Shown here piece after piece: positions 1-13,131 of a DNA stretch of 26,036 nucleotides. This DNA comes from Candidatus Woesearchaeota archaeon (lineage in GTDB: Archaea > Nanobdellota > Nanobdellia > Pacearchaeales > GW2011-AR1). The position numbers and the translations under genes are program-made. The notes beneath the pieces are model-generated. The model was not told the origin of the DNA and did not search any database. It saw only the letters and a list, made by a program, of their open reading frames with translations. Positions within the stretch are counted from its first letter, which is position 1; each line of letters begins with the position of its first letter. Where the stretch lies: positions 1-26,036 of the forward strand of contig CAZAZO010000002.1 in NCBI GenBank assembly GCA_964489675.1, read 5' to 3'.

Positions 1-2
1 CT

Positions 3-449: not shown

Positions 450-451
450 TA

Positions 452-2095
452 ATGAAAAATATAGTTTTTATATCAGATTTTTTTTTGAAAGATGGGGTAC
501 ACGGTGGTGCAGAACAATTTAATGAAAATCTGTTATCTTTGTTATCCCAAAAATATAAAATATCCAGACTCAATAGTCATAATGCCACTCCTGACATCAT
601 AGAGGCAGGCAAAGAATCTTTTTTTATAATTTCTAATTTCATGAATCTCTCTGAGGCTTGTAAGAAGCTTTTATTTACAAAAAAGTATATCATCCTTGAG
701 CATGACCATAAGTATATAACGAACAATGATCCTTCCAAATTCGTCAACATGATTGCACCTCAGAACAAGATATGGAATTTAGAATTTTTTCAAAAAGCTC
801 AAGCAGTACTTTGTCAGAGTAAAATACACGCCGAAGTCGCGCAGAAAAATCTATTAGTAAACAACATTATTAATCTTTCTTGTAATTTGTGGTCAGACGA
901 ACAATTGGAATTCTTATCTTCTTTTGTGGGCAAAGAAAAGGTGATAAAAAATTCCATTATAGATTCTAACAACAAAAACAAGGGTACCCCAAGCGCCATT
1001 AAATACTGTCAAGACAACAATATCGAATTCAACCGTATAGGTTGGCTAGAATATCCACAATTTCTAGAACAACTAGCGAAGACAGAGACATTAATATTTT
1101 TTCCACAATGGTTGGAATCATTTAACCGTTTAGTTGTCGAGGCTAAAATCTTGGGATGTAAAATAACAACGAATAAATTAGTGGGGGTAGCAAGTGAAGA
1201 ATGGTTCCGCAATGCAAAGCCAGAGGACATTATACCCATCCTCAAAGAGAAGAGAGAACACGTATTAAAAATATTTGAAACACTCATAGAAGAAAAAGAG
1301 CACAATTTATTAATTCCAGAAATTAAAATACCAAAAGTGTCCATTATAACCTCCTTGTATAAGGGTGGTAAATTTATTAAGAGATTTATGGAAAATATAA
1401 CATCACAGACGTGTTTTGATAAGTGTGAATTGATAATTCTAGACGCAAACTCACCGGACAAAGAATATGAGACAACTATTAAGGGTTACTTGGATGAATA
1501 TAACAACATAAAATACAAGAGACTCAAAGACCGAAAGTCTGTTCAAGAAACAATGAACTTGGGGCTAGGACTTGCAACCGGTGAGATATTAACCATAGCT
1601 AGTGTTGACGACTTTCGACACCCCGAACACATTCGGACACTATCTTCTGCATTGGTTGTGGACTCGACTGTAGATTTGGTGTACGCAGACTGTTATCAAT
1701 CATCAGAGTTAGCTGCTAAATTCGAAGAATGTGACAAAAACAACAAATATGAACATTCTATGTTTAAATTCACAAAAGAAAATATGATAAAATGTCTCCC
1801 GGGACCAATGCCGGTGTGGAGAAGGTCTGTACACACCAAAACTGGGAACTTTGACGAAAAATATAAATATGCAGGAGACTGGGATATGTGGCTAAGAATG
1901 GTCAGAGAGGGAAGCAAATTTAAAAAAATAGAGCAAGGTTTAGGAATTTATTATTTTAATCCCGAAGGCTTATCTACATCTGCTGATAACCACAGAGAAA
2001 AGTTTAAAGAGGAAAGAGAAGTATTTAACAAAAACAAGGATATTTTTGGAGACAGAATCACAAACATGTTTGAGGGTTATTTTAATGGAAGATAG
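452..2095 (+). CDS. Two-domain glycosyltransferase: N-terminal GT-B (GT4-like) fused to C-terminal GT2 (GT-A)
   Basis: N-half has DFFLKDGVHGGAE and FFPQWLESFNRLVVEAKILGC (E-x7-E). C-half has KVSIITSLYKGGKFI, LIILDANSPD, DLVYAD and AGDWDMWLR, all typical GT2 motifs. Confidence 0.8.
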   Translation: MKNIVFISDFFLKDGVHGGAEQFNENLLSLLSQKYKISRLNSHNATPDIIEAGKESFFIISNFMNLSEACKKLLFTKKYIILEHDHKYITNNDPSKFVNMIAPQNKIWNLEFFQKAQAVLCQSKIHAEVAQKNLLVNNIINLSCNLWSDEQLEFLSSFVGKEKVIKNSIIDSNNKNKGTPSAIKYCQDNNIEFNRIGWLEYPQFLEQLAKTETLIFFPQWLESFNRLVVEAKILGCKITTNKLVGVASEEWFRNAKPEDIIPILKEKREHVLKIFETLIEEKEHNLLIPEIKIPKVSIITSLYKGGKFIKRFMENITSQTCFDKCELIILDANSPDKEYETTIKGYLDEYNNIKYKRLKDRKSVQETMNLGLGLATGEILTIASVDDFRHPEHIRTLSSALVVDSTVDLVYADCYQSSELAAKFEECDKNNKYEHSMFKFTKENMIKCLPGPMPVWRRSVHTKTGNFDEKYKYAGDWDMWLRMVREGSKFKKIEQGLGIYYFNPEGLSTSADNHREKFKEEREVFNKNKDIFGDRITNMFEGYFNGR

Positions 2096-3110
2096 GAAAT
2101 ATTTAGTTATCGATTCAAGGCCATACGGCTTTTTCTCAATTTTTATGCACACTATAGACAACCTCAAGTGGGCCGATGACCATGGTTACACTCCAGTAGT
2201 CCGTTGGGGCCCGGGCAGAACAGATGTAAACAAGAATCGCCCCGGAGCCGAAAAGGCATCAAGGCTAGCAAACCCAGTCCACGTAGGCACAGAGCCAAAC
2301 TTTTCGGAATTGTCAGACGATTCTCTTAGAGAGGGGTGTTTATATCTGGACGCGTCCAGGTCTGGTGAGTCATCATATTCTTGTTGGGAACACTTCTTTG
2401 AACCTGTCTCTGAATATTCAATTGAACAAGCAATAAATTCAAAACATAAAGTTTCAGATATTTTTCAAGTTGGTTTTCACGATTTGGATGTTTCATCTCT
2501 GGAAAGGAAATTTTTAATATTTAATTTACATAGTTATACGCCTTTAAACCTATGGGTGTATTGTTATAATAAAATGCAGACACTTCAAAAGCACCGACAA
2601 AGGGTATTTTATTATATTAACAAATTTATCAAAGTGAAGCCGAATATTAAGCAGAAGGTGGATTCTTTCGTAGAGGAGCATTTTACAGAAAATGTTATAG
2701 GTGTACACATAAGAGGAACAGATAAGTCTTCAGAATCAACTATTGGTCAAAGACCTTTTATTTCTGTGGAGGACTATATTAGAGATACTGAAAAGGCCCT
2801 TGAGAGTAAACCAGGTGCGTCCATATTTATAGCTTCGGACAATAACGAGGCAATTGGGAAGATGTTTAATCGTTTTCCAAATAATAAAATTATTGTATAC
2901 AAGTGCACAAGAATGTCTTCATATTCTTCACAGACGCCAGTCCATCTTTCGGAGGCCGCTGGTCCTGCAATAGGCGAGGAGGCATTAATAGATTGTTTGC
3001 TATTGTCGAAATGCAACCATTTGGTATGCACCGACTCTAACTTGGCTGCAGCCGCACTATACTTTAATCCTAACAGTACATTGTCTTTTGTGAATTTGAA
3101 AGGAAATTAA
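2085..3110 (+). CDS. NodZ/GT23-like (fucosyltransferase-like) glycosyltransferase, paralog 1
   Basis: Motifs VIGVHIRGTDK, IFIASDNNEAI and EEALIDCLLLSKCNHLVCTDSN match the GDP-fucose-binding motifs of the NodZ/FUT8/O-fucosyltransferase superfamily. Start reassigned to ATG 2085 (SD-like GAGGGT at 2072-2077; aligns with the paralog N-terminus). Confidence 0.7.
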   Translation: MEDRKYLVIDSRPYGFFSIFMHTIDNLKWADDHGYTPVVRWGPGRTDVNKNRPGAEKASRLANPVHVGTEPNFSELSDDSLREGCLYLDASRSGESSYSCWEHFFEPVSEYSIEQAINSKHKVSDIFQVGFHDLDVSSLERKFLIFNLHSYTPLNLWVYCYNKMQTLQKHRQRVFYYINKFIKVKPNIKQKVDSFVEEHFTENVIGVHIRGTDKSSESTIGQRPFISVEDYIRDTEKALESKPGASIFIASDNNEAIGKMFNRFPNNKIIVYKCTRMSSYSSQTPVHLSEAAGPAIGEEALIDCLLLSKCNHLVCTDSNLAAAALYFNPNSTLSFVNLKGN

Positions 3111-3113
3111 AAC

Positions 3114-4151
3114 ATGGATAAGAAATTTTTAATAATAGACTCGCGACCGTATGGTTTATTTTCCATATTTCTACATACGGTAGATAATATCAAATGGGCA
3201 AAGGATAACGACTATATCCCAGTTGTACGTTGGGCCCCTGGTAGAAGAGACTCTAACTACGGAAGAAGGGGAACTATAGAATACAGGGACACTAAAAATG
3301 CAGGAGTTCTTGACAAGAACAACTTTTTAACAGAAGATGCACCCCCCTCATATGGGAACACACCCGGCCTTAAACACTGTCAATGCTTGTATTGGGCACC
3401 GGAGGGCCATCATGGTGAGAAAAACCCGTGGAGGTACTATTTTGAGCCTCTAAACGAGTATACTGTAGAGCAGGCAGAGCAGGCACCACATGATGTTGCC
3501 GATATATTTATGGTTGGAGAATTGGACGACGACTTAGACAACAAATTTTTAATAAAAAGTGTTCACCTTTACGAGCCCTTAATTCTTTGGGATATCCTGG
3601 GTACCGATAAGGAACAAGGCCACAGGCAAGAAGTGAACGATGTTATAAAAGAAAACATTAAAGTTAGAGAGGAAATTTCATTAAAAATAGACGATTTTTA
3701 TAAAAAGCATTTTTCACAAGATAAGAAAACTATAGCAGTACACGTCAGAGGTACAGATAAGAAATTAGAATATCCTCACAAGGCATTGCCAATAGAGGCT
3801 TATAAGATTGCAATACAGAACTACCTAGATAGTTCAGATGAAATCGTAGACTTATATATAGCCTCAGACAATAATGAGGCTATTGGAGAGATAATAGAAG
3901 ACTTTAGAGGTAAGGTTGGAAAAATTATTATATACCCATCTGTTCGAATGCCAAAGTACTTTTCAAAAGACCCAATATGTTTAACCTCTGCAACAGGTCC
4001 GAAACATGGAGAGGAAGTTTTGATAGAGACAATATTGCTTTCTAAGTGTTCGCATCTTATTTGTACAGATTCAAATGTGTCAGCCGGCGCCATGTATATA
4101 AATCCAAATATGTCTATAGACTATTTAAACAGGAAATATGGTTCAAGGTGA
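3114..4151 (+). CDS. NodZ/GT23-like (fucosyltransferase-like) glycosyltransferase, paralog 2
   Basis: Motifs IAVHVRGTDK, LYIASDNNEAI and EEVLIETILLSKCSHLICTDSN; clearly homologous to the upstream ORF along its length. Confidence 0.7.
   Translation: MDKKFLIIDSRPYGLFSIFLHTVDNIKWAKDNDYIPVVRWAPGRRDSNYGRRGTIEYRDTKNAGVLDKNNFLTEDAPPSYGNTPGLKHCQCLYWAPEGHHGEKNPWRYYFEPLNEYTVEQAEQAPHDVADIFMVGELDDDLDNKFLIKSVHLYEPLILWDILGTDKEQGHRQEVNDVIKENIKVREEISLKIDDFYKKHFSQDKKTIAVHVRGTDKKLEYPHKALPIEAYKIAIQNYLDSSDEIVDLYIASDNNEAIGEIIEDFRGKVGKIIIYPSVRMPKYFSKDPICLTSATGPKHGEEVLIETILLSKCSHLICTDSNVSAGAMYINPNMSIDYLNRKYGSR
4120..4127 (+). promoter_or_regulatory. Candidate internal ACTATTTA motif upstream of the transketolase-like genes
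   Basis: Exact ACTATTTA starting 28 nt before GTG 4148, with spacing similar to the 23201 and 23652 sites. It lies inside coding sequence (Asp-Tyr-Leu), so it could be chance. Confidence 0.25.
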
Positions 4152-4897
4152 GAGAGACAAAAAATATAAGAAAAGCAATACTTGAGATGTCTTTCAAATC
4201 GCAAGCAGGGCACATCCCATCAGCTATGTCTATAGTAGAGATATTATACTCTATTTATTCAAGGGTCAAGAAAGATGAAGATGTGTTTATTTTGAGCAAG
4301 GGACATGGTTGTCTTGCTCTATATGCTGTTCTGGTAGAAGTAGGGTTGCTTAATAGGGAAGAATTAGAAAGTTTTTGCAAATATGATAGTATTTTGGGAG
4401 GACACCCTCACAGGCAAAAACATAAGGAGTTCTACTGCTCAGCAGGCTCTCTTGGTCATGGCTTGCCTATGGCCGTTGGAGCGGCTTTGGCTAAGAAGAT
4501 AAAGGGTGAAAAAGGGATAGTATGCTGCTTGATTGGTGATGGGGAATCAAATGAGGGAACAGTCTGGGAGTCATTAATGTTGGCCAAAAACTTAAATTTG
4601 AATAACTTAATATGTATCATAGACAATAATAACTCTCAAACTAGATCAATGCCAGTCCACGCATTGGAAGAAAAAGTCAAGAGTTTTCAATGGCACACAA
4701 AAGTTGTAGATGGCCATAATGTAGAAAACATTACAGAAGCTTTATCTGAAGGCCTCTCCGCGCCACTATGTTTGATTTGTCAAACTACAAAAGGCAAGGG
4801 TATTTCAGAGATGGAGACAAACACATTTGCTTGGCATCATGGACCACCCAACAAAGAACAATATGATAGGTTTGTGAAAGAAGTGGAAAATGCGTAA
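4148..4897 (+). CDS. Transketolase-like protein, N-terminal ThDP-binding subunit
   Basis: Motifs GHIPSAMS, LSKGHG, GHP, GSLGHGLPMAVG, GDGESNEG...DNN (ThDP/Mg motif), DGHN, TTKGKG and WHH. Start reassigned to GTG 4148, which overlaps the upstream TGA and follows AGGA at 4131-4134. Confidence 0.9.
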   Translation: MRETKNIRKAILEMSFKSQAGHIPSAMSIVEILYSIYSRVKKDEDVFILSKGHGCLALYAVLVEVGLLNREELESFCKYDSILGGHPHRQKHKEFYCSAGSLGHGLPMAVGAALAKKIKGEKGIVCCLIGDGESNEGTVWESLMLAKNLNLNNLICIIDNNNSQTRSMPVHALEEKVKSFQWHTKVVDGHNVENITEALSEGLSAPLCLICQTTKGKGISEMETNTFAWHHGPPNKEQYDRFVKEVENA

Positions 4898-5777
4898 ACA
4901 ATTTGCAGATTTGATGATTTCAATGGCCGAAAGGGATGATAAGCTTGTACTTTTAATAGGGGACATTAGTCACCATCTATTGAGAGACTTTGAACAAAAA
5001 TTTCCCAATAGGTTTTACAACGCCGGTATATGTGAACAATCGATTGTTAGTATGGCAGCCGGCCTTGCCGCTGAGGGCTTAAGGCCAGTTGTACACACCA
5101 TTGCACCTTTTTGTGTAGAAAGAGCCTTTGAACAAATAAAAGTAGACTTGTGTTATCAAGATTTACCAGTGACAATTATTTCTGTAGGTTCGTCTTTTGA
5201 CTATGCTCACTTAGGATGTACTCACCACTGTTATGAAGATACATCAATTCTGAGAAGTTTACCTAATATAGATATTTTTGTTCCAGGTTCTTCGGAAGAA
5301 TTTAGAACTTTGTTTGAGGAAACTTGGCACGTTCAAAGGCCAAAGTATTTCAAATTATCAAAAGATGAACATGGTGTAGAAACCAGTGTTGAACCGTACA
5401 AGATGAGTGTTCTTAATAAGGGTGATAAGTCGACAGCTATTTTTGTTAATGGACATCTTTTAAGTGAAGTATATAAAATTGATGATATTGAACAATACAC
5501 TATTGTTTATAGCCCAACTATAGAGCCCATTGATGAACATTCTTTGAAAACAATACACTCCATCCTAAAAACTCACGAAAAAATAGTAACCATAGAAGAA
5601 AACTCGTCAATAGGAAGTTTCGCGGATAAGGTAACTGATATAGCATTTTCCAATAATACTCCTATTTTAAATAAGAAAATAGGTATCCCAAGAGAGTTTC
5701 TGACAAAATATGGAAAAGCATGTGACCATAGGGAGTCATTAGGTCTTGTTGCAAAAAGGATAAAAAATGAATTATAA
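4890..5777 (+). CDS. Transketolase-like protein, C-terminal (pyrimidine-binding plus C-terminal domain) subunit
   Basis: Motifs RFYNAGICEQSIVSMAAGLA, RAFEQIKVDL, GCTHHCYED and IVTIEENS; overlaps the N-subunit gene by 8 nt. Confidence 0.9.
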   Translation: MRKQFADLMISMAERDDKLVLLIGDISHHLLRDFEQKFPNRFYNAGICEQSIVSMAAGLAAEGLRPVVHTIAPFCVERAFEQIKVDLCYQDLPVTIISVGSSFDYAHLGCTHHCYEDTSILRSLPNIDIFVPGSSEEFRTLFEETWHVQRPKYFKLSKDEHGVETSVEPYKMSVLNKGDKSTAIFVNGHLLSEVYKIDDIEQYTIVYSPTIEPIDEHSLKTIHSILKTHEKIVTIEENSSIGSFADKVTDIAFSNNTPILNKKIGIPREFLTKYGKACDHRESLGLVAKRIKNEL

Positions 5778-6831
5778 CCATCATATTATTAGACAAGAAT
5801 GTCAAAGGTTGTTTGAAATAGACAAGTTCGAAGAGTTAAAGAACAAAACCGTATTTGTTGTAGGCGCAAACGGCTTAATAGGTAGTTTTTTGGCAGATTT
5901 TATGGTATTTTTAAACGAAAATGACTATAATATTAGCCTAATATTAAGCTCATATAGTGCCCCTGATAAGGCTGTTCGCATATTACACCTTCAAAACAGA
6001 GATGATGTAAGATACTTTTCATGGGATTGTTCAAAACCGCTACCTCAAAACGCTTTGAAAGAGGAAATCGATGTGACTTTTTTCTGTGCAGGGTATGGAC
6101 AGCCGTCTAAATTTCTCTCAAATAACATAAAGACTACACTGATAAATATTGTTGGTGCGAATAGTATTCTAGATAAACTATCCAGACAAGAAAAAGATAC
6201 AAAATTTACATTTCTAAGTACCAGTGAGATTTATGGAACACCTTCTGTGTATCCGACACCAGAGGAATATCCCTGTCAATTCGATTTAAGTAACAATAGG
6301 GTCGCATATATCCTATCAAAAGCAACAGCTGAAAACTTGTGCGTTCAATATAATAAATTAGAACATCTAGAAACAAAGATAGCTAGAATAGCTTTAACGT
6401 ATGGCCCCGGCACCATGCATAATGACTCTAGAGTCATGCAGGAATTTATTTTTAAGGCAGCTAAAAACGGGAATATATCAATGTTGGACTCAGGCTCCTC
6501 TATAAGGAACTATTTGTATTTAACAGACTCCGCAGAAGCGATCTTAAATGTGACACTTAGAGGTCAGAGTATAGTGTATAATATCGGAGGAGATTCTGAA
6601 GAGGTTAGTATCTATGGTTTAGCTAAACATATAGGCGCTTTGATGGGTACACCAGTTATAAAAGGTGAAGAAAAAAACAAAAATACAAAGTCAGCTCCAT
6701 TGAAAGTTGGCTTGTCAATGAAGAAATATAGGAAAGAATTCCCAAAGTATGGTAATAATATTATTGGCTTGAGTCAGGGAATAGATAGGGTACTAAAGTG
6801 GTACAGACTTATGGAGGTAGAAAATGAATAA
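5767..6831 (+). CDS. NAD-dependent epimerase/dehydratase (extended SDR), UDP-glucuronate decarboxylase (UXS)-like
   Basis: Rossmann motif VVGANGLIGS, STSEIYG, YxxxK (YILSK), ARIALTYGPG, and DSRVMQEFI...GSSIRNYLYLTD resembling the UXS pattern DGRVVSNFI...GSQTR. Exact substrate cannot be assigned. Confidence 0.8.
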   Translation: MNYNHHIIRQECQRLFEIDKFEELKNKTVFVVGANGLIGSFLADFMVFLNENDYNISLILSSYSAPDKAVRILHLQNRDDVRYFSWDCSKPLPQNALKEEIDVTFFCAGYGQPSKFLSNNIKTTLINIVGANSILDKLSRQEKDTKFTFLSTSEIYGTPSVYPTPEEYPCQFDLSNNRVAYILSKATAENLCVQYNKLEHLETKIARIALTYGPGTMHNDSRVMQEFIFKAAKNGNISMLDSGSSIRNYLYLTDSAEAILNVTLRGQSIVYNIGGDSEEVSIYGLAKHIGALMGTPVIKGEEKNKNTKSAPLKVGLSMKKYRKEFPKYGNNIIGLSQGIDRVLKWYRLMEVENE

Positions 6832-7741
6832 ACAAAAGTTAACAGTAAAAGACTTTGAAGAAGCGTGGGGAGAAAAGGTTTCAGATTTTGTCGCAGGAAA
6901 AATTTTAGAATATGACTTTGAATACTCGGAACTCGACCCAGAAACTAGAGAAAAATTGATATTAGAAACGTTAAATCATATAGACTCTGGTTTATATAAA
7001 GCCGGTCCTCACCGGTCAAAAGACTGGGTAAAAGGTTGGGCGGAAAACAGGGATACAAATTCTACAGATTTTTTAGTGCCAAGATACTTTGGAAAATTTC
7101 CACATGTAAGATGGAAGGGGGAACTTGTCAAAACTGAAAGTGAAAACTTTGAATATAGTTGTGCATCTGTATTGCAGTATCACCTATTTGAAAAGTATTT
7201 CAGCACCACGGATAATATTTATGAATTCGGTTGTGGAACTGGGCACAACTTATTGAGGGCCCATGAGGTCAATCCTGCAGCGACAATTCATGGTTTAGAC
7301 TGGGCAGAATCGTCTCAACATACCATTGAGCGCATTAACAAAAGTTTTAACAAAAACTTCAAGTCTAAGAAATTTGATTTTTTTAATGTTGACAAACAAT
7401 TTAAAATTGGCAAAAATTCTGGCGTTTATACTTTCGCAGCACTTGAACAAGTGGGGGAGAAACATACGGGCTTCATAGAATATTTAATATCCCAGAAGCC
7501 TTCTATATGTTTGCATATTGAACCAATATCTGAGTTATTAAAACCAAAAGAGTCATTACTGGACTTTTTAAGTGTTAAGTATTTTGAAGAAAGAAATTAT
7601 TTAAATGGCTTTTATAAAAACTTAAAAAATCTAGAAGATGATGGTATCATAGATATCATACACGCACAAAGAAGCAACATAGGAAGCTTCTACGTTGACG
7701 GGTATTCTGTAGTTGCTTGGAGGCCAAAATGCCACAGTTAG
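6824..7741 (+). CDS. Class I SAM-dependent methyltransferase
   Basis: Motif I IYEFGCGTGHNL, post-motif GLDWA and VYTFAALEQV. Strong SD GGAGGT upstream. Confidence 0.75.
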   Translation: MNKQKLTVKDFEEAWGEKVSDFVAGKILEYDFEYSELDPETREKLILETLNHIDSGLYKAGPHRSKDWVKGWAENRDTNSTDFLVPRYFGKFPHVRWKGELVKTESENFEYSCASVLQYHLFEKYFSTTDNIYEFGCGTGHNLLRAHEVNPAATIHGLDWAESSQHTIERINKSFNKNFKSKKFDFFNVDKQFKIGKNSGVYTFAALEQVGEKHTGFIEYLISQKPSICLHIEPISELLKPKESLLDFLSVKYFEERNYLNGFYKNLKNLEDDGIIDIIHAQRSNIGSFYVDGYSVVAWRPKCHS

Positions 7742-8157
7742 TTTATTCAAAACAAGATAAAGACATATTGTTGTTGGCAATAAATAGAAGAAACGAAATA
7801 TCTGAAAAAAGAGTAGATATTTGCCCCGAGGATCAATACTTGCAGATCTGCACAAAAGTTATGCCCGAAGGATTAACCTTCAAAGCACATAAGCATAACA
7901 AATTAGAGAGAAACACTGATTATACAAATGAAGCGTGGATAATCTTAGAGGGTTCTGTAGCTGCAACTTTTTGGGATATAGATGACGAGAAGATCTTGGA
8001 GACAACTTTAGAATCTGGTGACTGCGCAGTGGTATTCCGAGCTGGACACAGCTTTAAGGTTCTGAAAGAAGGCACTATCTTATATGAAGTAAAATCCGGA
8101 CCATATTATGGTACAGAAAAAGATAAGACTTTTCTGGAGGCCGACAATGATTTATGA
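7729..8157 (+). CDS. WbuC-like cupin-fold metalloprotein
   Basis: Cupin motifs FKAHKH...EAWIILEGS and LESGDCAVVFRAGHSFKV, plus YEVKSGPY. Start reassigned to ATG 7729 after GGAGG at 7719-7723. Confidence 0.7.
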   Translation: MPQLVYSKQDKDILLLAINRRNEISEKRVDICPEDQYLQICTKVMPEGLTFKAHKHNKLERNTDYTNEAWIILEGSVAATFWDIDDEKILETTLESGDCAVVFRAGHSFKVLKEGTILYEVKSGPYYGTEKDKTFLEADNDL

Positions 8158-8320
8158 ATTATGGGATATGGTTTCTCTAGGAGAAGGAGAATCACCCATA
8201 CCACTTACACTCCTAGACAAGAGTGAAAACTTTGAAAACATATATATTAAATTTAATAAAATTATAAAGCACAAGATGTGTGTTATTTTTGTAAGAACAA
8301 GGAACGAAAACAATGACTAA
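8147..8320 (+). CDS. Small hypothetical protein (57 aa)
   Basis: ATG 8147 follows GGAGG at 8136-8140, and the ORF overlaps both neighbours in the same style as the rest of the operon. No recognisable domain. Confidence 0.45.
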   Translation: MIYELWDMVSLGEGESPIPLTLLDKSENFENIYIKFNKIIKHKMCVIFVRTRNENND

Positions 8321-9296
8321 AAAGAGAGCCCTAATAACAGGCATTGGTGGACAAGATGGTAGCTACTTGGCAGAACACCTCTTAGAAAAAGGCTACGAAG
8401 TTCATGGCTTGATAAGGCGACATTCCGTCGCAGAAAATCAAGATAGTAGAATTACCAAATTTTCCAACCAAATAAAGACTTATTATGGAGATCTGTTAGA
8501 TGCCCCATCTTTAACAAGAATTTTTAATGAAAGTAAGCCAGATGAGATTTATAACCTTGCAGCAATGTCACATGTTAGGATAAGTTTCGATGTACCATCT
8601 TTCACTATTCAGACAAATGGTTTGGGTGTCTTAAATATGCTGGAAACATACCGAACTCTAGCACCTAATGCAAAATTTTATCAAGCTAGCTCATCAGAGA
8701 TGTTTGGAAATTCTGTAGATGAAGATGGTATACAAAGGCTTACTACACCTATGAACCCAGTTAGTCCTTATGGCTGCGCAAAGTTGTTGGGATACAATCT
8801 TGTGCGTCATTATCGTCATGCTTACAAGCTTCACGCATGTAACGGTATTCTTTTTAACCACGAGTCCCCACGCCGCGGAACGAATTTTGTGACAAACAAA
8901 GTGGTCAAAACAGCTGTAGAAATTAAATTAGGCTTAAAAGACAAATTAGAATTGGGAAATATGGACTCATTTAGAGATTGGGGACATTCAAAAGATTACG
9001 TTAGAGCGATGAATATGATAATCAATCACGAAACACCGGATGAGTTCATAGTAGCAACGGGACAAACACACTCAGTAAGAGACTTGTGTGATACAGTTTT
9101 TAAGAAGTTGGACTTAAACTATGAAGAATATGTAACACAAAACCCTAAGTTTATGAGACCAGAAGAATTGAAATACCTAAAGGGCGATGCATCTAAAGCA
9201 CAGAAGATCTTAGGATGGAAGCCGGAATATACTTTTGAAAGCATGTTAGAAGAAATGATAGAAAATTGGCAACAAAAATTAAAGGAGAAAACATGA
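8313..9296 (+). CDS. gmd: GDP-mannose 4,6-dehydratase
   Basis: Diagnostic motifs ALITGIGGQDGSYLAEHLLEKGYEVHGLIRR, YNLAAMSHVRISF, YQASSSEMFG, SPYGCAK, GILFNHESPRRG and LGNMDSFRDWGH. Confidence 0.95.
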   Translation: MTKKRALITGIGGQDGSYLAEHLLEKGYEVHGLIRRHSVAENQDSRITKFSNQIKTYYGDLLDAPSLTRIFNESKPDEIYNLAAMSHVRISFDVPSFTIQTNGLGVLNMLETYRTLAPNAKFYQASSSEMFGNSVDEDGIQRLTTPMNPVSPYGCAKLLGYNLVRHYRHAYKLHACNGILFNHESPRRGTNFVTNKVVKTAVEIKLGLKDKLELGNMDSFRDWGHSKDYVRAMNMIINHETPDEFIVATGQTHSVRDLCDTVFKKLDLNYEEYVTQNPKFMRPEELKYLKGDASKAQKILGWKPEYTFESMLEEMIENWQQKLKEKT

Positions 9297-9532
9297 GACT
9301 ATCAAACCAAGCAATGGGAGCCTTAATGATGGCGCTGCAAAAATCCCTATTAGAACAAACAGATATTGTACCTATTTTGGAATCATTTGAATTTACAAAA
9401 TCAAATGATACTAAGAGGTGGGGTTCCAAATCGGGGGAACTTGTTATAAAGAATCCGCCTTCTTTTAAGATAGGCAACGACCACTTTAATCACAACCCAG
9501 AAGAAAACAAAATTACAAGAGGCTCTGACTAA
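9293..9532 (+). CDS. Hypothetical protein (79 aa)
   Basis: ATG 9293 overlaps the gmd stop (ATGA) and follows AAGGAG. Reads MRLSNQAMGALMMALQKSLLEQTDIVPIL. Confidence 0.7.
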   Translation: MRLSNQAMGALMMALQKSLLEQTDIVPILESFEFTKSNDTKRWGSKSGELVIKNPPSFKIGNDHFNHNPEENKITRGSD

Positions 9533-9781
9533 ATGCCTGTATATATCTACAGCTGCAACAGTTGCAAGGAAGAATTTGAAGTAAGACACGGAATGTCTTT
9601 TAATGACCAGAAGTGTGTAATATGCAATAGTGCAGATGTGTTTAAGATACCGGCTTTAAGTATTGATCAGCACCGGCAGATACACTCCAACCGAGCCGGT
9701 AGAATTGTAGATAAATATATAAAAGAAACCAAAGAAACAATTGAGAAAGAAAAGATAGATCTCAGAAAGAGAGAATTGTAG
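9533..9781 (+). CDS. FmdB-like zinc-ribbon protein
   Basis: MPVYIYSCNSCKEEFEV...CVICNS has the MP-x-Y-x-Y-x-CxxC...CxxC signature. Confidence 0.8.
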   Translation: MPVYIYSCNSCKEEFEVRHGMSFNDQKCVICNSADVFKIPALSIDQHRQIHSNRAGRIVDKYIKETKETIEKEKIDLRKREL

Positions 9782-10074
9782 TGTGGGAAACATTTTTTAT
9801 TATAAGTTTTTTAGTTAATATATTTCTGCTCTTATATGCAAGGTGGTTAATAAAATCATATTCAGTGTTGATAGAAGATATATCTTCTATCAATGAGATG
9901 GTGCTTAAATTTACGGAACATGTAAAAAGTGTACATGAACTTGAGACATTTTATGGAGATGAGACTTTGAATTCTTTATTACAGCATGGAAGAGAATTGG
10001 TTGATAAAATAGGAAATTTGGATTTACTAACAGAAGATGAAGAAGATAATAAAGAAGAGACGCAAGAGAACTAA
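9781..10074 (+). CDS. Hypothetical protein with N-terminal transmembrane helix and acidic tail
   Basis: Hydrophobic N-terminus (FFIISFLVNIFLLLYARWLI), a helical or coiled middle and the acidic end TEDEEDNKEETQEN. GTG start overlaps the upstream TAG. Confidence 0.65.
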   Translation: MWETFFIISFLVNIFLLLYARWLIKSYSVLIEDISSINEMVLKFTEHVKSVHELETFYGDETLNSLLQHGRELVDKIGNLDLLTEDEEDNKEETQEN

Positions 10075-10744
10075 GAACAATTACTTCACAAAGGTACATG
10101 AACAGGCCATTGTGGAGTATGCGAATACTGGCTGTATAAAACAGAGGACAAAGTTATATGAGTCCTTAATCCAACCAGCATTTGAGGAGATGGTAAATAA
10201 AATAATTTTTACCTATAAGTTCAACAATCTGCCAAACATTGACCCTCTAAGAGAAGACTGTAAGATATGGTTAACAACTATATTGGATAAATACGACCCA
10301 AACAAGGGTTCAAAGGCTTTTTCTTATTTTTCGGTTGTGACAAAAAACTGGTTTATACATAAAGTAAAAGTTAATTCCAAAAGATTGAGAAGAGAAGTAT
10401 CATACGAAAATTTGGTAGAAACAGGCGGCTCAGATGTGTTGGGGACTTCTGATTCTGAAAGACAAGATTATCTCGAACAAAGAATAGAGATGGAATTTTG
10501 GAACTCACTGTTATTCCAGGTAGATAAGTGGGATACAGGAAATTTAAAACCTAATGAGAAAGCGGTATTGGAAGCAGTTAAAGTGTTGCTGAATAACATA
10601 GAGGATATAGAAATATTTAACAAAAAAGCAGTATACCTATATTTGAGAGAGCTTACAGGATTAAACACAAAGCAAGTCGTTAACAATTTGAACAAATTAA
10701 GAGAAAAGTATAGAATATTTAAATGTAAATGGGATAGAGAATAA
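10037..10744 (+). CDS. Phage-encoded RNA polymerase sigma factor (sigma-70 region 2 / T4 gp55-like late sigma)
   Basis: LDKYDPNKGSKAFSYFSVVTKNWF resembles sigma region 2.3 (FDPxKGxKFSTY) and is preceded by a region-2.2-like LREDCKIWL. A possible C-terminal HTH is present (YLYLRELTGLNTKQVVNNLNKL). Lacks region 1.1 and the length of a housekeeping sigma. Confidence 0.65.
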   Translation: MKKIIKKRRKRTKNNYFTKVHEQAIVEYANTGCIKQRTKLYESLIQPAFEEMVNKIIFTYKFNNLPNIDPLREDCKIWLTTILDKYDPNKGSKAFSYFSVVTKNWFIHKVKVNSKRLRREVSYENLVETGGSDVLGTSDSERQDYLEQRIEMEFWNSLLFQVDKWDTGNLKPNEKAVLEAVKVLLNNIEDIEIFNKKAVYLYLRELTGLNTKQVVNNLNKLREKYRIFKCKWDRE

Positions 10745-10749
10745 AAAGC

Positions 10750-10766
10750 GCAACTAGTCTATTTAT
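10750..10766 (+). promoter_or_regulatory. Candidate late-promoter motif (GCAACTAGT-CTATTTAT) directly after the sigma gene
   Basis: The 25-nt gap contains CTATTTAT (10759-10766), ending 3 nt before an ATG that has no SD. GCAACTA is also shared with the 23198 site. Confidence 0.35.
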
Positions 10767-10769
10767 GAT

Positions 10770-11069
10770 ATGAGTAAAAAAATAGAAAACTTCATAGAGA
10801 GAGCAAATCAAAATATCGTCGACGACCGCGCGGCAACTAAAACTTTGTTAATGACTATCATGAAATACATGCAAACAGGTGATGATAGACACAAGGAGGT
10901 CGGACTTATAGCAGCAAAATATTTAGAAACTCTACAGAGGTCAAATGAACAGCTAGTTAAACTTGCGTCTTTGATGCAAAAAAGTCAATCAGATGAAGCA
11001 GGAATATCCGATGAAGATAAACAGGAGTTATTTGACCTTATAAATCAGAAAGGCGAAAATGATGAATGA
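10770..11069 (+). CDS. Helical phage protein, possibly terminase small subunit-like
   Basis: Helical segment DRHKEVGLIAAKYLETLQRSNEQLVKL loosely resembles the T4 gp16-type R-x-x-E-V...N-x-x-L helix. The ORF itself is solid; the function is speculative. Confidence 0.4.
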   Translation: MSKKIENFIERANQNIVDDRAATKTLLMTIMKYMQTGDDRHKEVGLIAAKYLETLQRSNEQLVKLASLMQKSQSDEAGISDEDKQELFDLINQKGENDE

Positions 11070-11715
11070 TAACGCCAAAAATTTAGATGATATTGTTAGG
11101 AATATGGGCATCGCCGCGGCTCACTCTCAAACACCTAGTCAAAATCCCAATGACGACACCAGCGCATCCGGCAACAATTTTTTTGATTATTTGTTGAATT
11201 CTGTAGAATATTACGATTCTAAACTTCGAAGAAAATTCAAAGATTTAGAGTTTCCTGGTCTAATACTGCATACAAAATTACTTAAATCAAGGAAAGAATT
11301 GGAAAGTTTAACATGCAATGCTTTTGCTAATCAGATTGTAAAAAGCTCTACAAAGACTCATAAATATTGGGAAGTCCATGCTTATGTACAGGAAATTTCC
11401 GGACTCCTGCCACAGCCAACATTTTCGGATATGATGGGGTATGACGATGGTACTTTAGATAAATCTGGTAGAGATAGATATGAAACAATCGTCTCGCGTT
11501 TTACAAAATTCTACTGCTGCCGACGAAACGCGCCAAAGATTTTTGAATGTCACAGGGTATTGTTTCCGGATGAGAATTTCTTCTATTATGGTCTAATAGA
11601 AGAAAATAGTATATTACACAATTCTAGCGTATTGAAAAAAAATGAAAAGGCTATATTGGAAAAGCAAACCGGAGCCGGCAATAATGCATCCTATCTTGGC
11701 GGCATGATGAGTTAG
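11059..11715 (+). CDS. Hypothetical protein, possibly an OB-fold baseplate-hub/spike-associated subunit
   Basis: 218-aa ORF with an AAGG SD and alternating beta-like segments (GLILHTK, YWEVHAYVQEI, RVLFPDENFFYYGLI), directly upstream of the spike-like gene. Fold assignment is inference. Confidence 0.4.
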   Translation: MMNDNAKNLDDIVRNMGIAAAHSQTPSQNPNDDTSASGNNFFDYLLNSVEYYDSKLRRKFKDLEFPGLILHTKLLKSRKELESLTCNAFANQIVKSSTKTHKYWEVHAYVQEISGLLPQPTFSDMMGYDDGTLDKSGRDRYETIVSRFTKFYCCRRNAPKIFECHRVLFPDENFFYYGLIEENSILHNSSVLKKNEKAILEKQTGAGNNASYLGGMMS

Positions 11716-11743
11716 AACAGGGAAGTAAGTAAGGTAAAACATA

Positions 11744-13114
11744 ATGGGAAAACGTACTGTAAAGAAAGGCGATTATCTAATAAAAATTGCCAGAGAGGAA
11801 GGTGTCACGCTAAAAGAACTAATAGCTGCAAATCCCCAAATTTCAGATCCAAACCTAATACACCCTGGAGATTCAATAAATGTTCCATCTTCTGAAGTCC
11901 CATCCGCGACTACATCCGGAGACAATTATACTGACGAGAACTCTCGCGCGCTGTCCGGAATGCAATCACCATCCGCGGCCGAAGAGGCAGGCGAATCAGG
12001 TCCCACCGGTGGTGAGCCTGTGTCCGAACCACCAGAGCCCGGGCTAAAAAGATTCATAAAAGGGCACCATGGAAAATATCATAAAGAGCATGAAGAATTC
12101 ATTAGCGGTGATAACGGCCTGTCCGGCAGTATCCTATCCGAACCTGTACCTGAATTTTTCGCCCGACCGGGCGATGGAATACTTACTGCGACTGAATTTT
12201 CCCAAGGAGCTAGCGATAATAATACGATGATTATTCTGGGCAGAGATCGAACCGGACTAGGAGAGATCGACTCCGCGGACCCTAACTTGGTCAAGTCAGA
12301 CTCAGGATATTCCAGCTATATGGGCGCCGGAGCAATAGATATAGTTGTAGGAAGGTGCTCTCCTTTTCCTTTAAGTATGGAAGGTAAGACCTGGAGTCCG
12401 CTTTTTAATACTCAAAAGAAAATACCAGAACTGAGAATGCAAACGCTGGAAGGAATTGAGAATAACACCCCCTTCTTTACATTTCACCCTGGGTATGTAA
12501 TGGACGCAGCAAGAATTTACATAAGTCAAATGACAGATATAGATGAGAGCTTTAAGATACAAAAAAAATTATTCTTTGGTGGTTCAATAAAGCAAAAAAC
12601 AAATAAAAGAACACCATGTTCTGGAATTATGTTAAAGGCTGACAAGATAAGAATGCATTCAAGATCGGATGTAAAAATTGTAACAGGTGGTCCCCATGAG
12701 ACTGTAAACTCGCAGGGAAATGATATTACTGAGGTTGGTGGGATTCACTTGATGGCAGGAAATCAATCTTCAAACCAGCAGCCAATTCCACTCGGAGATA
12801 ACTTGGCAAGAGTTCTGGATCAGTTGGTTGATAAGGTTGATGATTTAGCTTCAATTGTGTTTTCGCTAGCACACAGTCAAATGAAATTTAATAATATACT
12901 GGGAACGCACTGCCACCAGTCGCCCATGTATGGTATCTCAACGACACCATCCCTAACAGCAGCACCAGCCTCAGTTGAAGCGGTGTTGAATCAATTTTCG
13001 AGAGTTACGAATCAGATCGTATATTTGCAAAGAAATTTAAGTGGCTTTAGGGGAAATTATTTAAGATATGGCTCGGGACACTATATAAACAGTAGTTACA
13101 ATACGACGAATTAA
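11744..13114 (+). CDS. LysM-domain protein fused to a baseplate central spike-like (gp5/gpV C-terminal-like) domain
   Basis: Residues 2-48 form a textbook LysM (TVKKGDYLIKIAREEGVTLKELIAANPQISDPNLIHPGDSINVP). A Ser/Glu/Pro linker follows, then short beta repeats (TMIILGRDR, AIDIVVGR, ARIYISQ, IMLKADKIRM, VKIVTG, GIHLMAG) and an HxH motif (HCH, nt 12908-12916). Located upstream of gp25- and gp6-like genes. LysM is certain; the spike call is contextual. Confidence 0.65.
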   Translation: MGKRTVKKGDYLIKIAREEGVTLKELIAANPQISDPNLIHPGDSINVPSSEVPSATTSGDNYTDENSRALSGMQSPSAAEEAGESGPTGGEPVSEPPEPGLKRFIKGHHGKYHKEHEEFISGDNGLSGSILSEPVPEFFARPGDGILTATEFSQGASDNNTMIILGRDRTGLGEIDSADPNLVKSDSGYSSYMGAGAIDIVVGRCSPFPLSMEGKTWSPLFNTQKKIPELRMQTLEGIENNTPFFTFHPGYVMDAARIYISQMTDIDESFKIQKKLFFGGSIKQKTNKRTPCSGIMLKADKIRMHSRSDVKIVTGGPHETVNSQGNDITEVGGIHLMAGNQSSNQQPIPLGDNLARVLDQLVDKVDDLASIVFSLAHSQMKFNNILGTHCHQSPMYGISTTPSLTAAPASVEAVLNQFSRVTNQIVYLQRNLSGFRGNYLRYGSGHYINSSYNTTN

Positions 13115-13131
13115 GAGACAGGTTTAAGAAA

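Follow-up and report, generated by a model that had tools for sequence, protein, structure and literature searches.

The window, the whole stretch of 26,036 nucleotides analysed here, belongs to a marine phage, a myovirus with gp25/gp6 baseplate genes. Near its start lies a run of genes in which the two subunits of a transketolase (TK) are embedded among sugar-modifying enzymes:

30 to 449, plus strand: glycosyltransferase-like gene, a 3' part or a short gene (phrog_2170 glycosyltransferase, E 1e-4, aligned to the C-terminal end of the profile)
452 to 2095, plus strand: glycosyltransferase with an N-terminal domain of unknown family and a GT2 domain at residues 297-460 (PF00535, 44 bits)
2085 to 3110, plus strand: GT23a, a GT23-like glycosyltransferase of FUT8/NodZ-type fucosyltransferase fold (PF19745 FUT8_N_cat, 54 bits, cut-off 27.6; PF05830 NodZ, 28.4 bits)
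3114 to 4151, plus strand: GT23b, a GT23-like paralog, sharing 41% identity with GT23a across some 350 residues
4148 (GTG start) to 4897, plus strand: TK-N, transketolase N-terminal (PP-domain) subunit, 249 residues (PF00456, 98 bits)
4890 to 5777, plus strand: TK-C, transketolase C-terminal (Pyr and C domain) subunit, 295 residues (PF02779, 86 bits)
5767 to 6831, plus strand: SDR, an extended enzyme of the UXS/HS5.17 clade, 354 residues (PF01370, 107 bits)
6824 to 7741, plus strand: MTL, class I SAM-methyltransferase-fold protein (weak PF13847; motifs EFGCGTGHN and GLDW)
7729 to 8157, plus strand: WbuC-like cupin, 142 residues (TIGR04366 WbuC, 36 bits, under the cut-off of 42)
8147 to 8320, plus strand: small conserved ORF, 57 residues as called in L001
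8313 to 9296, plus strand: Gmd, GDP-mannose 4,6-dehydratase, short form, 327 residues (PF16363, 387 bits; TIGR01472, 373 bits, cut-off 415)

From GT23b to gmd each gene overlaps the next by 4 to 13 nucleotides: 4 at GT23b/TK-N, where stop and start share GTGA, 8 at TK-N/TK-C, 11 at TK-C/SDR, 8 at SDR/MTL, 13 at MTL/cupin, 11 at cupin/57-residue ORF and 8 at ORF/gmd. Genes called independently on a metagenomic contig of identical sequence (L001) have the same boundaries. Since the genes overlap and no terminator-like site was found on the plus strand of positions 1 to 11800, we read them as one co-directional, probably translationally coupled unit. Such coupling had been claimed in an earlier note on this DNA, and every gene named there was recovered on the plus strand by profile searches and gene calls. 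The small ORF between cupin and gmd was absent from that account; it has counterparts of about 50% amino-acid identity at the equivalent position in two phages (L003 and L006), and family profile searches gave no match for it.

Immediately upstream stand the GT2 and the two GT23-like (FUT8/NodZ-like) transferases. Orthologs of the GT2 gene occupy the equivalent position in phages L003, L006 and L007 at 52-64% identity, and related phages have two GT4-type genes at the place of the first, short gene of the window, these lying upstream of GT2 in L006 and L007. GT23a was called as 341 residues in L001, while the profile search returned no Pfam match for GT23b itself. The region is best explained as part of a glycan operon of the phage, namely the half devoted to sugar tailoring; in this operon perhaps a GT4, then the GT2 and the two GT23-like transferases are followed by TK-N/TK-C, SDR, MTL, cupin and Gmd.

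The closest solved structures of the transketolase pair are those of a split transketolase, 6YAK for TK-N (137 bits) and 6YAJ for TK-C (114 bits). TK-N keeps the equivalents of E. coli transketolase H26, H66, H100, GDG...N and H261, so that the cofactor-binding and donor-side residues are canonical; its loop following DxNxS is 8 residues shorter. Among them is the histidine that is Phe in DXS, and mutating His100 moves transketolase towards pyruvate (PMC7661550); its retention points to a hydroxylated C2 unit as the donor. The acceptor pocket of TK-C is altered, with VGSSFDYAHLGCTHH in place of THAGLTVGEDGASHQ, that is, H461 to G and D469 to L, and the R520 position is variable. The Asp469 and His461 equivalents, present in sugar-phosphate transketolases and DXS, are missing family-wide, and the clade is defined by the TK-C motif VG[AS]S[YF]DYAxLGCTHH. 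In E. coli transketolase the S385Y/D469T/R520Q substitutions shift acceptor preference away from phosphorylated hydroxy-aldehydes (PMC5073344). The equivalent of Arg358 is kept, and thus some contact with a phosphate or diphosphate may remain. Identity is 28-29% to the housekeeping-type split transketolase and DXS versus 36-73% inside the cassette clade. The loss of Asp469 and His461 and the unconserved Arg520 argue against a pentose-phosphate gene and, as judged from sequence, support, in line with the earlier note, a pair outside central metabolism; it belongs to a distinct clade confined to glycan loci, beside GDP-fucose-pathway genes and fucosyltransferase-like transferases.

Five contigs from related phages keep the order TK-N/TK-C/SDR/MTL, with proteins 50-73% identical in amino-acid sequence. 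The order is unchanged in phages L003, L006, L007 and L008 and in further viral contigs (L004, L124, L126 and L134), and it recurs in the 691-kb contig L009 and in most of the 80 bacterial and archaeal loci that were gathered with MTL as the search key (L010-L089); the module occurs in about 60 loci of uncultivated bacteria. In more than 40 loci from unrelated phyla the transketolase is strictly syntenic with SDR and MTL. This recurrence in phages as well as bacteria and archaea is far beyond chance. TK-N/TK-C/SDR/MTL is thus a conserved, previously uncharacterised module, and MTL is its signature gene. Within 32 bacterial loci carrying a window-type transketolase, an Fcl-like gene was present in 23, the exporter gene Wzt in 13, fucosyltransferase-like GT10 or GT11 genes in 12, Gmd within 10 kb in only 11, and the exporter gene Wzm in 10; L009 has neither Gmd nor Fcl adjoining. 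Usually the bacterial Fcl-like gene is a cassette-specific paralog with a complete epimerase/reductase catalytic set, placed between SDR and MTL. That Fcl is missing, as the earlier note had stated, holds for the window, where tblastn with a cassette Fcl matched only Gmd, at 23% identity; as a trait of the module it fails, since Fcl-like genes accompany most of these bacterial loci and some viral copies. GT10, GT11 and GT23 are GDP-L-fucose-dependent glycosyltransferase families, and therefore the product of the module is probably a GDP-sugar of the fucose type.

Gmd is 82-91% identical in related phages. The association of the cupin is with Gmd and independent of the transketolase, as it is found near Gmd without TK in five loci (L090, L094, L128, L163 and L171). 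Its invariant residues are H54, H56, E68 and H107, and its top fold matches are QdtA, FdtD, FdtA, WlaRB and WbcA (E 3e-3, TM 0.43-0.48). The RmlC-type assignment of the earlier note was consequently dropped, and on the fold matches we consider the cupin a probable GDP-4-keto-6-deoxyhexose 3,4-ketoisomerase or epimerase. It equals the 3,4-ketoisomerases FdtA, QdtA and WlaRB and the GDP-4-keto-6-deoxymannose 3-epimerase WbcA in size (about 135-140 residues), and in phage LR756511 the order cupin, hexapeptide acetyltransferase, DegT aminotransferase and Gmd mirrors FdtA/FdtC/FdtB. However, these matches are weak, with TM below 0.5 and 11-18% identity, and unlike those enzymes the cupin, WbuC-like by name, carries His/His/Glu/His residues that suggest a metal site.

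The best solved relative of the SDR is human UXS1 (2B69, 98 bits), and Campylobacter jejuni HS5.17 (8V4G, 96.6 bits), a CDP-6-D-fructose reductase acting on the acyclic ketone of a CDP-linked sugar, is equally close at about 97 bits to each (PMC10918830). The SDR shares with both the Thr/Ser-x-Glu element (S-T-S-E), Tyr-x3-Lys and the diphosphate-binding Arg, and with HS5.17 an extension ahead of the Rossmann fold, here of about 28 residues. It has neither the beta2 Asp of NAD+-retaining UXS nor the Arg found there in NADPH-dependent HS5.17, and the locus contains no source of UDP-GlcA or a CDP-ketose. Because the SDR is as near to HS5.17 as to UXS, the 4-keto route through UXS-type chemistry that had been suggested is not indicated. 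We regard the SDR as the putative ketoreductase or oxidoreductase of the module; since the Thr/Glu/Arg residues of UXS, a decarboxylase, are retained in it, oxidase or decarboxylase activity is conceivable in place of side-chain reduction. MTL has an N-terminal domain, some 120 residues long, that is conserved. Its AlphaFold2 model (pLDDT 94.4) shows a class I SAM-methyltransferase fold that matches only generic methyltransferases, and all 848 homologs are unnamed or named 'SAM-dependent methyltransferase'.

Most likely, the cassette has no role in central metabolism and makes a surface sugar with a branched or extended carbon skeleton. As to the chemistry, we hold with moderate confidence that a GDP-linked keto-6-deoxyhexose receives a two-carbon ketol unit from the transketolase, at one or another of its carbons, and is probably reduced and methylated afterwards. 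Gmd would convert host GDP-mannose to GDP-4-keto-6-deoxy-D-mannose, which the cupin would isomerise or epimerise. The heteromeric transketolase would load a two-carbon ketol (as dihydroxyethyl-ThDP) from a ketose phosphate or hydroxypyruvate and deliver it to a GDP-linked keto-sugar in place of an aldose phosphate, although ketone acceptors are unusual for transketolases, giving a hydroxyacetyl-branched or, less conventionally, a chain-extended sugar. The neighbouring SDR would reduce the new side-chain ketone, MTL would methylate the product, and the GT23-like enzymes would pass the fucose-like GDP-sugar on, the acceptor being either a surface glycan of the host or a protein of phage or host. 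The C2 branch on a 4-keto NDP-sugar proposed earlier agrees with this in its GDP-fucose-pathway context and in the logic of a ThDP enzyme followed by a reductase, but not as a simple C4 branch. Fcl requires a 4-keto sugar with exchangeable H3/H5 and reduces C4; the embedded Fcl paralog with intact residues therefore speaks against simple branching of the Gmd product at C4, and a quaternary C4 branch is hard to square with Fcl unless there is later re-oxidation or the bond is made elsewhere (C3 or C6).

The transketolase might instead act on free sugar phosphates, making an unusual ketose phosphate (a heptulose or octulose phosphate, for example) that is reduced, methylated and activated later, to give a higher-carbon sugar or alditol for the glycan. 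We consider this unlikely, yet worth weighing: the SDR is as similar to HS5.17 as to UXS, the Arg358 equivalent is kept, and the locus has a second version, of Nitrospirales type, whose transketolase retains the Asp and lies beside an HddA-like kinase, an HddC/ManC-like nucleotidyltransferase, GmhA and an AKR. Against it, the His461, Asp469 and Arg520 equivalents that hold the sugar phosphate are gone, the genes constantly found alongside are Gmd, Fcl and fucosyltransferase-like transferases, and kinase, mutase or nucleotidyltransferase genes occur in at most 2/32 window-type bacterial loci (as do, each, sugar kinases, RmlC and AKR) and were not found in the phage by profile searches.

Rather improbable, in our estimate, is chain extension at C6 of a GDP-hexose in place of a branch at the keto carbon, possibly by addition to a C6 aldehyde or by conjugate attack on the 4-keto-5,6-ene formed as an intermediate by a Gmd-type dehydratase, the resulting eight-carbon fucose analogue then being epimerised and reduced by the Fcl paralog. 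This would account for a cassette-specific Fcl with intact catalytic residues, for the loss of Asp469, which binds an alpha-hydroxyl missing in such an acceptor, and for the use of fucosyltransferase-like enzymes, which tolerate C6-modified GDP-fucose. However, no ThDP enzyme is known to us that extends a nucleotide sugar at C6, no enzyme for the C6 aldehyde is evident, and the phage copy lacks Fcl. We give very little credence to a non-ligating enzyme that acts on an alpha-hydroxyketone in a GDP-keto-sugar by cleavage or rearrangement, in a reaction of retro-acyloin or epimerisation type, or produces a small substituent, not a sugar, for later attachment; ThDP enzymes can cleave acyloins and the acceptor pocket is unlike that of any characterised transketolase, but the histidines kept on the donor side agree with normal ketol transfer and no acyl- or alkyl-transferase conserved with the module was found in its loci. 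Finally, a role as an ordinary auxiliary metabolic gene, strengthening the pentose-phosphate pathway of the host in infection and with coincidental glycan neighbours, is scarcely credible: Pfam and NCBIfam label both halves transketolase or DXS and split housekeeping transketolases are known (6YAK/6YAJ; PMC7661550), but all NCBIfam transketolase/DXS equivalog cut-offs were missed by a wide shortfall, no close homolog was found in cultured phages, and the low identity to housekeeping enzymes, different acceptor motif, overlapping genes and strict synteny speak against it.

For the favoured ketol transfer to a GDP-linked keto-sugar, the closest precedent is the split-gene transketolases of miharamycin and amipurimycin biosynthesis. 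These are proposed, so far without in vitro proof, to form a tertiary alcohol by placing a hydroxyacetyl (C2 ketol) unit on the ketone of a keto sugar; 13 further split transketolases are predicted in Streptomyces (PMC12247030). Like these, likened here by description and not by sequence, the window enzyme is encoded by two genes inside a sugar-tailoring cluster with a partner oxidoreductase for the keto sugar. They belong, however, to actinomycete nucleoside-antibiotic pathways, all in Streptomycetes, whereas window-type transketolases are found in GDP-6-deoxyhexose/fucosyltransferase-type glycan loci of phages, CPR bacteria, Proteobacteria and other groups. YerE, the precedent offered in the earlier note, is more distant. 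YerE/YerF (yersiniose A) and the ErwE/MygE-type enzymes carry out acyl-branching of CDP-3,6-dideoxy-4-keto-glucose (PMC9306805); their genes likewise lie in glycan (LPS O-antigen) loci, and the ThDP enzyme immediately precedes a reductase, as in the window. But YerE-like enzymes consist of a single chain, belong to the decarboxylase (acetolactate-synthase-like) superfamily and take CDP-sugars together with 2-oxoacid donors (acetyl or longer), while the window enzyme is split, of transketolase fold, in a GDP-sugar context and has the His100 typical of hydroxylated donors (PMC7661550). Erwiniose and caryophyllose, considered as precedents for C6 extension, were dropped, as the literature explains both as C4 acyl branches (PMC9306805). 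Lastly, the pair shares with ChTK of Carboxydothermus hydrogenoformans (6YAK/6YAJ; PMC7661550) the two-subunit arrangement and all cofactor and donor residues, but differs in the 28% identity of TK-C, the acceptor motif (THAGLTVGEDGASHQ in ChTK), the shorter TK-N loop and its place in a glycan locus.

The window is phage DNA throughout its 26 kb, with every long ORF on the plus strand, and its sugar genes form a single run of overlapping genes at 452-9296, the boundaries of which were cross-checked against independent gene calls.

Genes of the sugar run and of the structural region
452-2095, plus strand, GT2-domain transferase
2085-3110, plus strand, GT23/FUT8/NodZ-like transferase a (PF19745, PF05830)
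3114-4151, plus strand, GT23/FUT8/NodZ-like paralog b (41% identity to GT23a)
4148-4897, plus strand, TK-N
4890-5777, plus strand, TK-C
5767-6831, plus strand, extended SDR
6824-7741, plus strand, methyltransferase-fold protein MTL
7729-8157, plus strand, WbuC-like cupin
8147-8320, plus strand, 57-aa ORF (length as called), no family match
8313-9296, plus strand, Gmd (PF16363)
11744-13114, plus strand, LysM protein
13132-23190, plus strand, giant ORF of 3352 aa, no family match
23233-23625, plus strand, gp25-like baseplate wedge protein
23683-25488, plus strand, gp6-like baseplate wedge protein

Each gene pair from GT23b through gmd overlaps by 4-13 nt, a scan of the region of the run found no terminator-like site on the plus strand, and the promoter/terminator scan gave background level. 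The coupling of TK-N and TK-C with the SDR, methyltransferase, cupin and gmd genes that the earlier note had described was thus confirmed by gene calls and overlaps. Since the G+C content is even across the window (0.34-0.43), the sugar genes are not compositionally foreign, and an identical copy of the sugar region is present on two metagenomic contigs. For the gp6-like protein, the closest matches come from Microcystis phage Mel-JY01 (33%) and Flavobacterium phage 'immuto' (28%). Small plus-strand ORFs flank gmd on both sides (8147-8320 and 9293-9532, overlapping it by 8 and 4 nt); the first has counterparts of about 50% identity in the related phage loci L003 and L006, and the second has no family match. 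The giant ORF, between the LysM gene and the gp25/gp6 baseplate genes, has no PHROG match, and its residues 1-1000 gave no convincing Pfam match; a very large gene occupies its position in related phages, with 3829 aa in L006 and 2254 aa in phage locus L007, where equivalence of position is less clear, and both products extend past the available locus ends. A 235-aa protein (10037-10744, plus strand), 58-79% identical across related phages, weakly matches the phage late sigma factor family phrog_234 (E 2e-4) and, by this similarity, could control late (structural or glycan) gene expression.

The transketolase halves carry the features expected of a working cofactor site. TK-N aligns over its full length with the Carboxydothermus hydrogenoformans split transketolase (ChTK) and human TKT and contains the ThDP/Mg2+ motif (GDGESNEG...DNNN); the loop after the metal-binding Asn is 8 residues shorter in the clade. 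TK-C Glu49 aligns with the cofactor-activating Glu of ChTK-C and DXS. The donor-side histidines, equivalent to E. coli transketolase H26, H66, H100, H261 and H473, are all conserved in the window and its clade. The His100 position is Phe in DXS, and its mutation moves transketolase towards a pyruvate donor (PMC7661550); its retention suggests that the donor is a hydroxylated two-carbon (ketol) unit and not acetyl. The acceptor side, which we read from sequence alignments onto E. coli R358, H461, D469 and R520, is altered. The equivalents of Arg358, the cofactor Glu and His473 are all present in TK-C, but 42 of 42 sequences of the window-type clade have VG[AS]S[YF]DYAxLGCTHH, the motif that defines this clade, in place of an otherwise near-universal segment (THAGLTVGEDGASHQ in ChTK, DRAGIVGADGQTHQ in E. 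coli DXS), which puts Gly at the His461 position and Leu at that of Asp469. The Arg520 position is variable across the same 42 sequences. In the E. coli enzyme, substitutions at S385, D469 and R520 make phosphorylated hydroxy-aldehydes less preferred as acceptors (PMC5073344). The pair is 28-29% identical to the reference split transketolase and DXS versus 36-73% within the clade, and curated models were missed widely: the best transketolase model, NF004559, gave 196 bits for TK-N and 97.5 bits for TK-C against a cut-off of 488, and the DXS model TIGR00204 gave 74 and 119 bits against 466. The expectation that the pair would not group with central-metabolism enzymes was borne out by these values. 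Judged by its residues, the pair is a real ThDP enzyme with a predicted non-canonical acceptor site, and the earlier note's interpretation is partly supported: the window transketolase is specialised and glycan-linked.

The surrounding module is conserved well beyond the window. The closest TK-N relatives (52-89% identical, about 250 aa) form a large set from marine and other metagenomes, and those with readable context show the same gene arrangement. Four phage loci (L003, L006, L007 and L008) share the order GT4-GT4-GT2-GT23-GT23-TKN-TKC-SDR-MTL-cupin-Gmd at 50-91% identity, followed downstream of Gmd by the same phage genes, and a 691-kb contig (L009) carries GT10-TKN-TKC-SDR-MTL among GT4, GT2, methyltransferase and PMT_2 genes. 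When one genome per species was searched with MTL, chosen as the least generic of the genes, we recovered 80 loci, all from MAGs or single-cell genomes, among them loci of Patescibacteria/CPR, Nitrospirales, Omnitrophota, Planctomycetota, Alpha-, Beta- and Gammaproteobacteria, Bacteriovoracaceae, Nitrosopelagicus and Nitrososphaera. A tblastn map with ORF clustering showed that TK-N/TK-C and MTL are neighbours in most of the 80, with Wzm-Wzt-TKN-TKC-SDR-SDR2-MTL-GT10 as the most frequent order; the neighbouring transferases belong to GT10 (PF00852) and GT11 (PF01531), and the exporter is a Wzt with a Wzt_C domain. Window-type transketolase occurs in 32 bacterial loci, of which 23 contain Fcl, 13 Wzt, 12 GT10 or GT11, 11 Gmd and 10 Wzm, and three further viral contigs hold the bacterial-type cassette, Fcl included. 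Gene identities and conservation of the module are direct observations. As GT10, GT11 and GT23 are the classical GDP-L-fucose-dependent families, the module is tied to a GDP-linked fucose-type sugar. Cultured and deposited phage genomes, searched at the DNA and protein levels, yielded no close transketolase homolog; the best matches, about 30% identical, come from records resembling bacterial contamination, and the single blastn match, to LR756511, was rejected as a transketolase homolog, the match being to Gmd.

Several variants of the locus deserve mention. In many CPR and proteobacterial loci (L010-L055), Wzm and a Wzt with the Wzt_C carbohydrate-binding domain often lie immediately upstream of the cassette. 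Since the O-polysaccharide's terminal cap is what Wzt_C recognises in known systems, the modified sugar might act as a chain-terminating cap. Locus L006 has the SDR and MTL called as one 656-aa fusion protein (11630-13600), which supports a functional link between them, and an extra TylF-type methyltransferase gene after Gmd. In a related phage (L173, a contig of GCA_025933435.1; 6395-8037), TK-N is called as 191+64 aa and TK-C as 149+122 aa, reflecting either assembly-error frameshifts or transketolase decay in that phage. Nitrospirales and relatives (L060-L073, L077 and L089) have a second version of the locus with two ThDP systems side by side, a PDH-E1 alpha/beta-like pair and a TK-N/TK-C pair with the Asp469 equivalent retained (GVDGPTHH), among genes for an HddA-like kinase, an HddC/ManC-like nucleotidyltransferase, Nudix, a Gmd-like SDR, RmlC, aldo-keto reductases, a TylF-like methyltransferase, MTL and a 1733-aa protein.

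Gmd is well supported in the window, with a full-length PF16363 match of 387 bits, SSSEMFG and YGCAK in its translation, and 373 bits to TIGR01472, just below the cut-off of 415. GT23a scored 54 bits to PF19745 (cut-off 27.6) and 28.4 bits to PF05830 (cut-off 28.3), and GT23b is assigned to GT23 solely through its identity to GT23a. Profile searches, with tblastn in addition for Fcl, found no manB, manC or Fcl ortholog in the window; tblastn with the cassette Fcl hit Gmd alone (23% identity), and the window SDR scored 43 bits to NF047922 versus 259 bits for the bacterial cassette Fcl. In a viral scan with an Fcl profile, the contigs of the window's phage clade were not among the 80 matches listed of at least 594. 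The SDR2 of the bacterial loci is a GDP-L-fucose synthase homolog that keeps the Ser-x-Cys, Tyr-x3-Lys and His of the epimerase/reductase, and in several loci a canonical Fcl gene beside Gmd is accompanied by a second, cassette-specific Fcl gene between SDR and MTL; the cassette-specific proteins are 55-70% identical to one another and about 40% to the canonical type. The lack of Fcl pointed out in the earlier note therefore stands for the window, but it fails as an argument about the module, given the Fcl genes in most window-type bacterial loci.

The SDR falls in the UXS clade, with 98 bits to human UXS and 96.6 bits to Campylobacter jejuni HS5.17, an NADPH-dependent reductase of open-chain CDP-6-D-fructose with an extra helix before the Rossmann fold (PMC10918830), which the window SDR has as well. 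Its STSEIYG, YILSK and SIRNY align with the UXS T118/E120, Y147/K151 and R277 motifs, and the family keeps S/T-S-E, Y-x3-K and the diphosphate-binding arginines. We rejected these catalytic residues as a means to separate a UXS-like oxidase/decarboxylase from a ketoreductase, because HS5.17 has the identical set. The beta2 Asp that UXS uses for tightly bound NAD+ (VVDNFFT) is absent from the window SDR, which has LILSSYS instead, and no UDP-glucose dehydrogenase that could supply UDP-GlcA was found in the window or its conserved neighbours. The protein is thus a predicted nucleotide-sugar SDR, either oxidase/decarboxylase or ketoreductase, and the UXS route suggested earlier does not hold as stated, the HS5.17 ketoreductase being equally close. 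The MTL model (pLDDT 94.4) has a class I SAM-methyltransferase core and a conserved N-terminal domain; a fold search returned generic class I methyltransferases only (TM about 0.45), with no close solved relative, so the fold cannot separate O- from C-methylation. Its 848 homologs are unnamed or annotated 'SAM-dependent methyltransferase'.

The cupin scored 36 bits to TIGR04366 (WbuC) against a cut-off of 42, several homologs 63-68% identical to it are named 'cupin fold WbuC family metalloprotein' by JGI, and a His/His/Glu/His set is invariant. Its model (pLDDT 92) gave QdtA, FdtD, FdtA, WlaRB and WbcA as best but weak fold matches (E 3e-3), so that an RmlC-type assignment could not be upheld. 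QdtA, FdtD, FdtA and WlaRB are NDP-4-keto-6-deoxyhexose 3,4-ketoisomerases, and WbcA is a GDP-4-keto-6-deoxymannose 3-epimerase. Because homologs lie near Gmd without a transketolase, in LR756511, in three viral contigs with Fcl and Gmd, and in L171 with DegT and Gmd, and because the cupin is rare in bacterial cassettes, we regard it as an accessory of Gmd, not of the transketolase. A role as the phage's replacement for Fcl was rejected, since cupin, Fcl and Gmd occur together in other viral loci. In the 595-kb uncultured phage LR756511.1 (L090), 7837-10766 encodes a cupin 44% identical to that of the window, a hexapeptide acetyltransferase, a DegT aminotransferase and Gmd, an order resembling a GDP-based form of the FdtA/FdtC/FdtB pathway for 3-acetamido-3,6-dideoxyhexoses, with genes for a GT11-like enzyme, another aminotransferase and two protein kinases in the vicinity. 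Loci L171/L172 (4806-8980) combine an NDP-hexose C-methyltransferase-like gene (PF08421/PF08484), two cupins, one of them WbuC-like, a short DegT fragment, Gmd and CMP- and NDP-sugar transferase genes, further evidence of elaborate phage tailoring sets for GDP-6-deoxyhexoses.

Putting these enzymes in sequence, Gmd would make GDP-4-keto-6-deoxy-D-mannose, which the cupin may isomerise or epimerise; a ketose phosphate or hydroxypyruvate would then donate a dihydroxyethyl (hydroxyacetyl) unit, which the transketolase would place on the GDP-keto-sugar, the SDR would reduce the new ketone, as YerF does after YerE (PMC9306805), and MTL would methylate the product for transfer by the GT23-like enzymes. 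Here the substrates, the site of attack and the step order are inferred. Fcl needs a 4-keto sugar with exchangeable H3/H5 and reduces C4, so a simple C4 branch on the Gmd product does not fit with the dedicated Fcl paralog of the bacterial cassettes, the chief difficulty for this reading. Three possibilities would accommodate Fcl: re-oxidation afterwards, which could be a role for the UXS-like SDR, attack elsewhere after ketoisomerisation, or chain extension at C6. Because of this difficulty we leave the regiochemistry open and give C2 transfer onto a GDP-keto-sugar, at whichever carbon, an even chance. A role for the transketolase at the sugar-phosphate level appears improbable; a GHMP kinase, nucleotidyltransferase, RmlC or aldo-keto reductase is each found in at most two of the 32 window-type bacterial loci. 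Chain extension at C6, one of the ways to fit Fcl, is in itself rather improbable; 6,8-dideoxy-octoses such as erwiniose were rejected as its precedent, being explained as C4 acyl branches (PMC9306805). Non-ligating ThDP chemistry is very improbable for this ketol-type donor site, and a pentose-phosphate auxiliary gene, for a pair so far from the curated transketolase cut-offs, deserves hardly any credence.

With C2 transfer as the preferred reading, we tentatively propose, as something less than an even bet, a hitherto unrecognised pathway of wide distribution in which a transketolase forms a C-C bond directly on a GDP-linked sugar, giving a new branched or eight-carbon fucose analogue that fucosyltransferase-like enzymes would install, possibly as a terminal cap read by Wzt-type O-antigen exporters, and with which phages would remodel host or virion glycans. 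Such a pathway would range over CPR/Patescibacteria, Proteobacteria, Omnitrophota, other uncultivated lineages and several marine phage lineages, and be divergent in Nitrospirales. Should this reading be right, no transketolase-type enzyme would have been shown earlier to act on a nucleotide sugar, the GDP-fucose family would gain a new monosaccharide, and a module common in uncultivated bacteria (including CPR) and marine phages would be given a function; moreover, 'transketolase' in viral metagenomes would not automatically mean a pentose-phosphate auxiliary gene. In phage terms, the reading suggests that the phage itself directs the making of an unusual surface sugar, from genes beside those for baseplate and tail. 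A nucleotide-sugar transketolase would surprise specialists. Ketone-accepting or otherwise non-canonical transketolases, so far proposed (PMC12247030), would gain a tractable example, and the cassette makes the question of ketone acceptance directly testable.

Branching of nucleotide sugars by ThDP enzymes is established for the YerE type, which uses acetyl or longer 2-oxoacid donors and CDP-sugars (PMC9306805). YerE-like lyases, however, belong to the single-chain decarboxylase (ALS-like) superfamily, whereas the window has Transketolase_N and Transket_pyr on two chains, with a short, weak match to TPP_enzyme_C (30 bits over 70 residues). An incomplete literature search found no report of a transketolase in an O-antigen/LPS, GDP-sugar (GDP-fucose) or phage glycan cluster. 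The closer parallel is with miharamycin and amipurimycin, where a 2025 review describes split-gene transketolases proposed to add hydroxyacetyl to a keto sugar and lists 13 further predicted ones, all from Streptomycetes and none characterised in vitro (PMC12247030). Likened by this description, the window also has a split transketolase with an SDR directly after TK-C, an arrangement found in all window-type loci. Thus, the sequence clade, the nucleotide-sugar context and the host range in uncultivated bacteria and phages are new, while the predicted chemistry is of a known kind.
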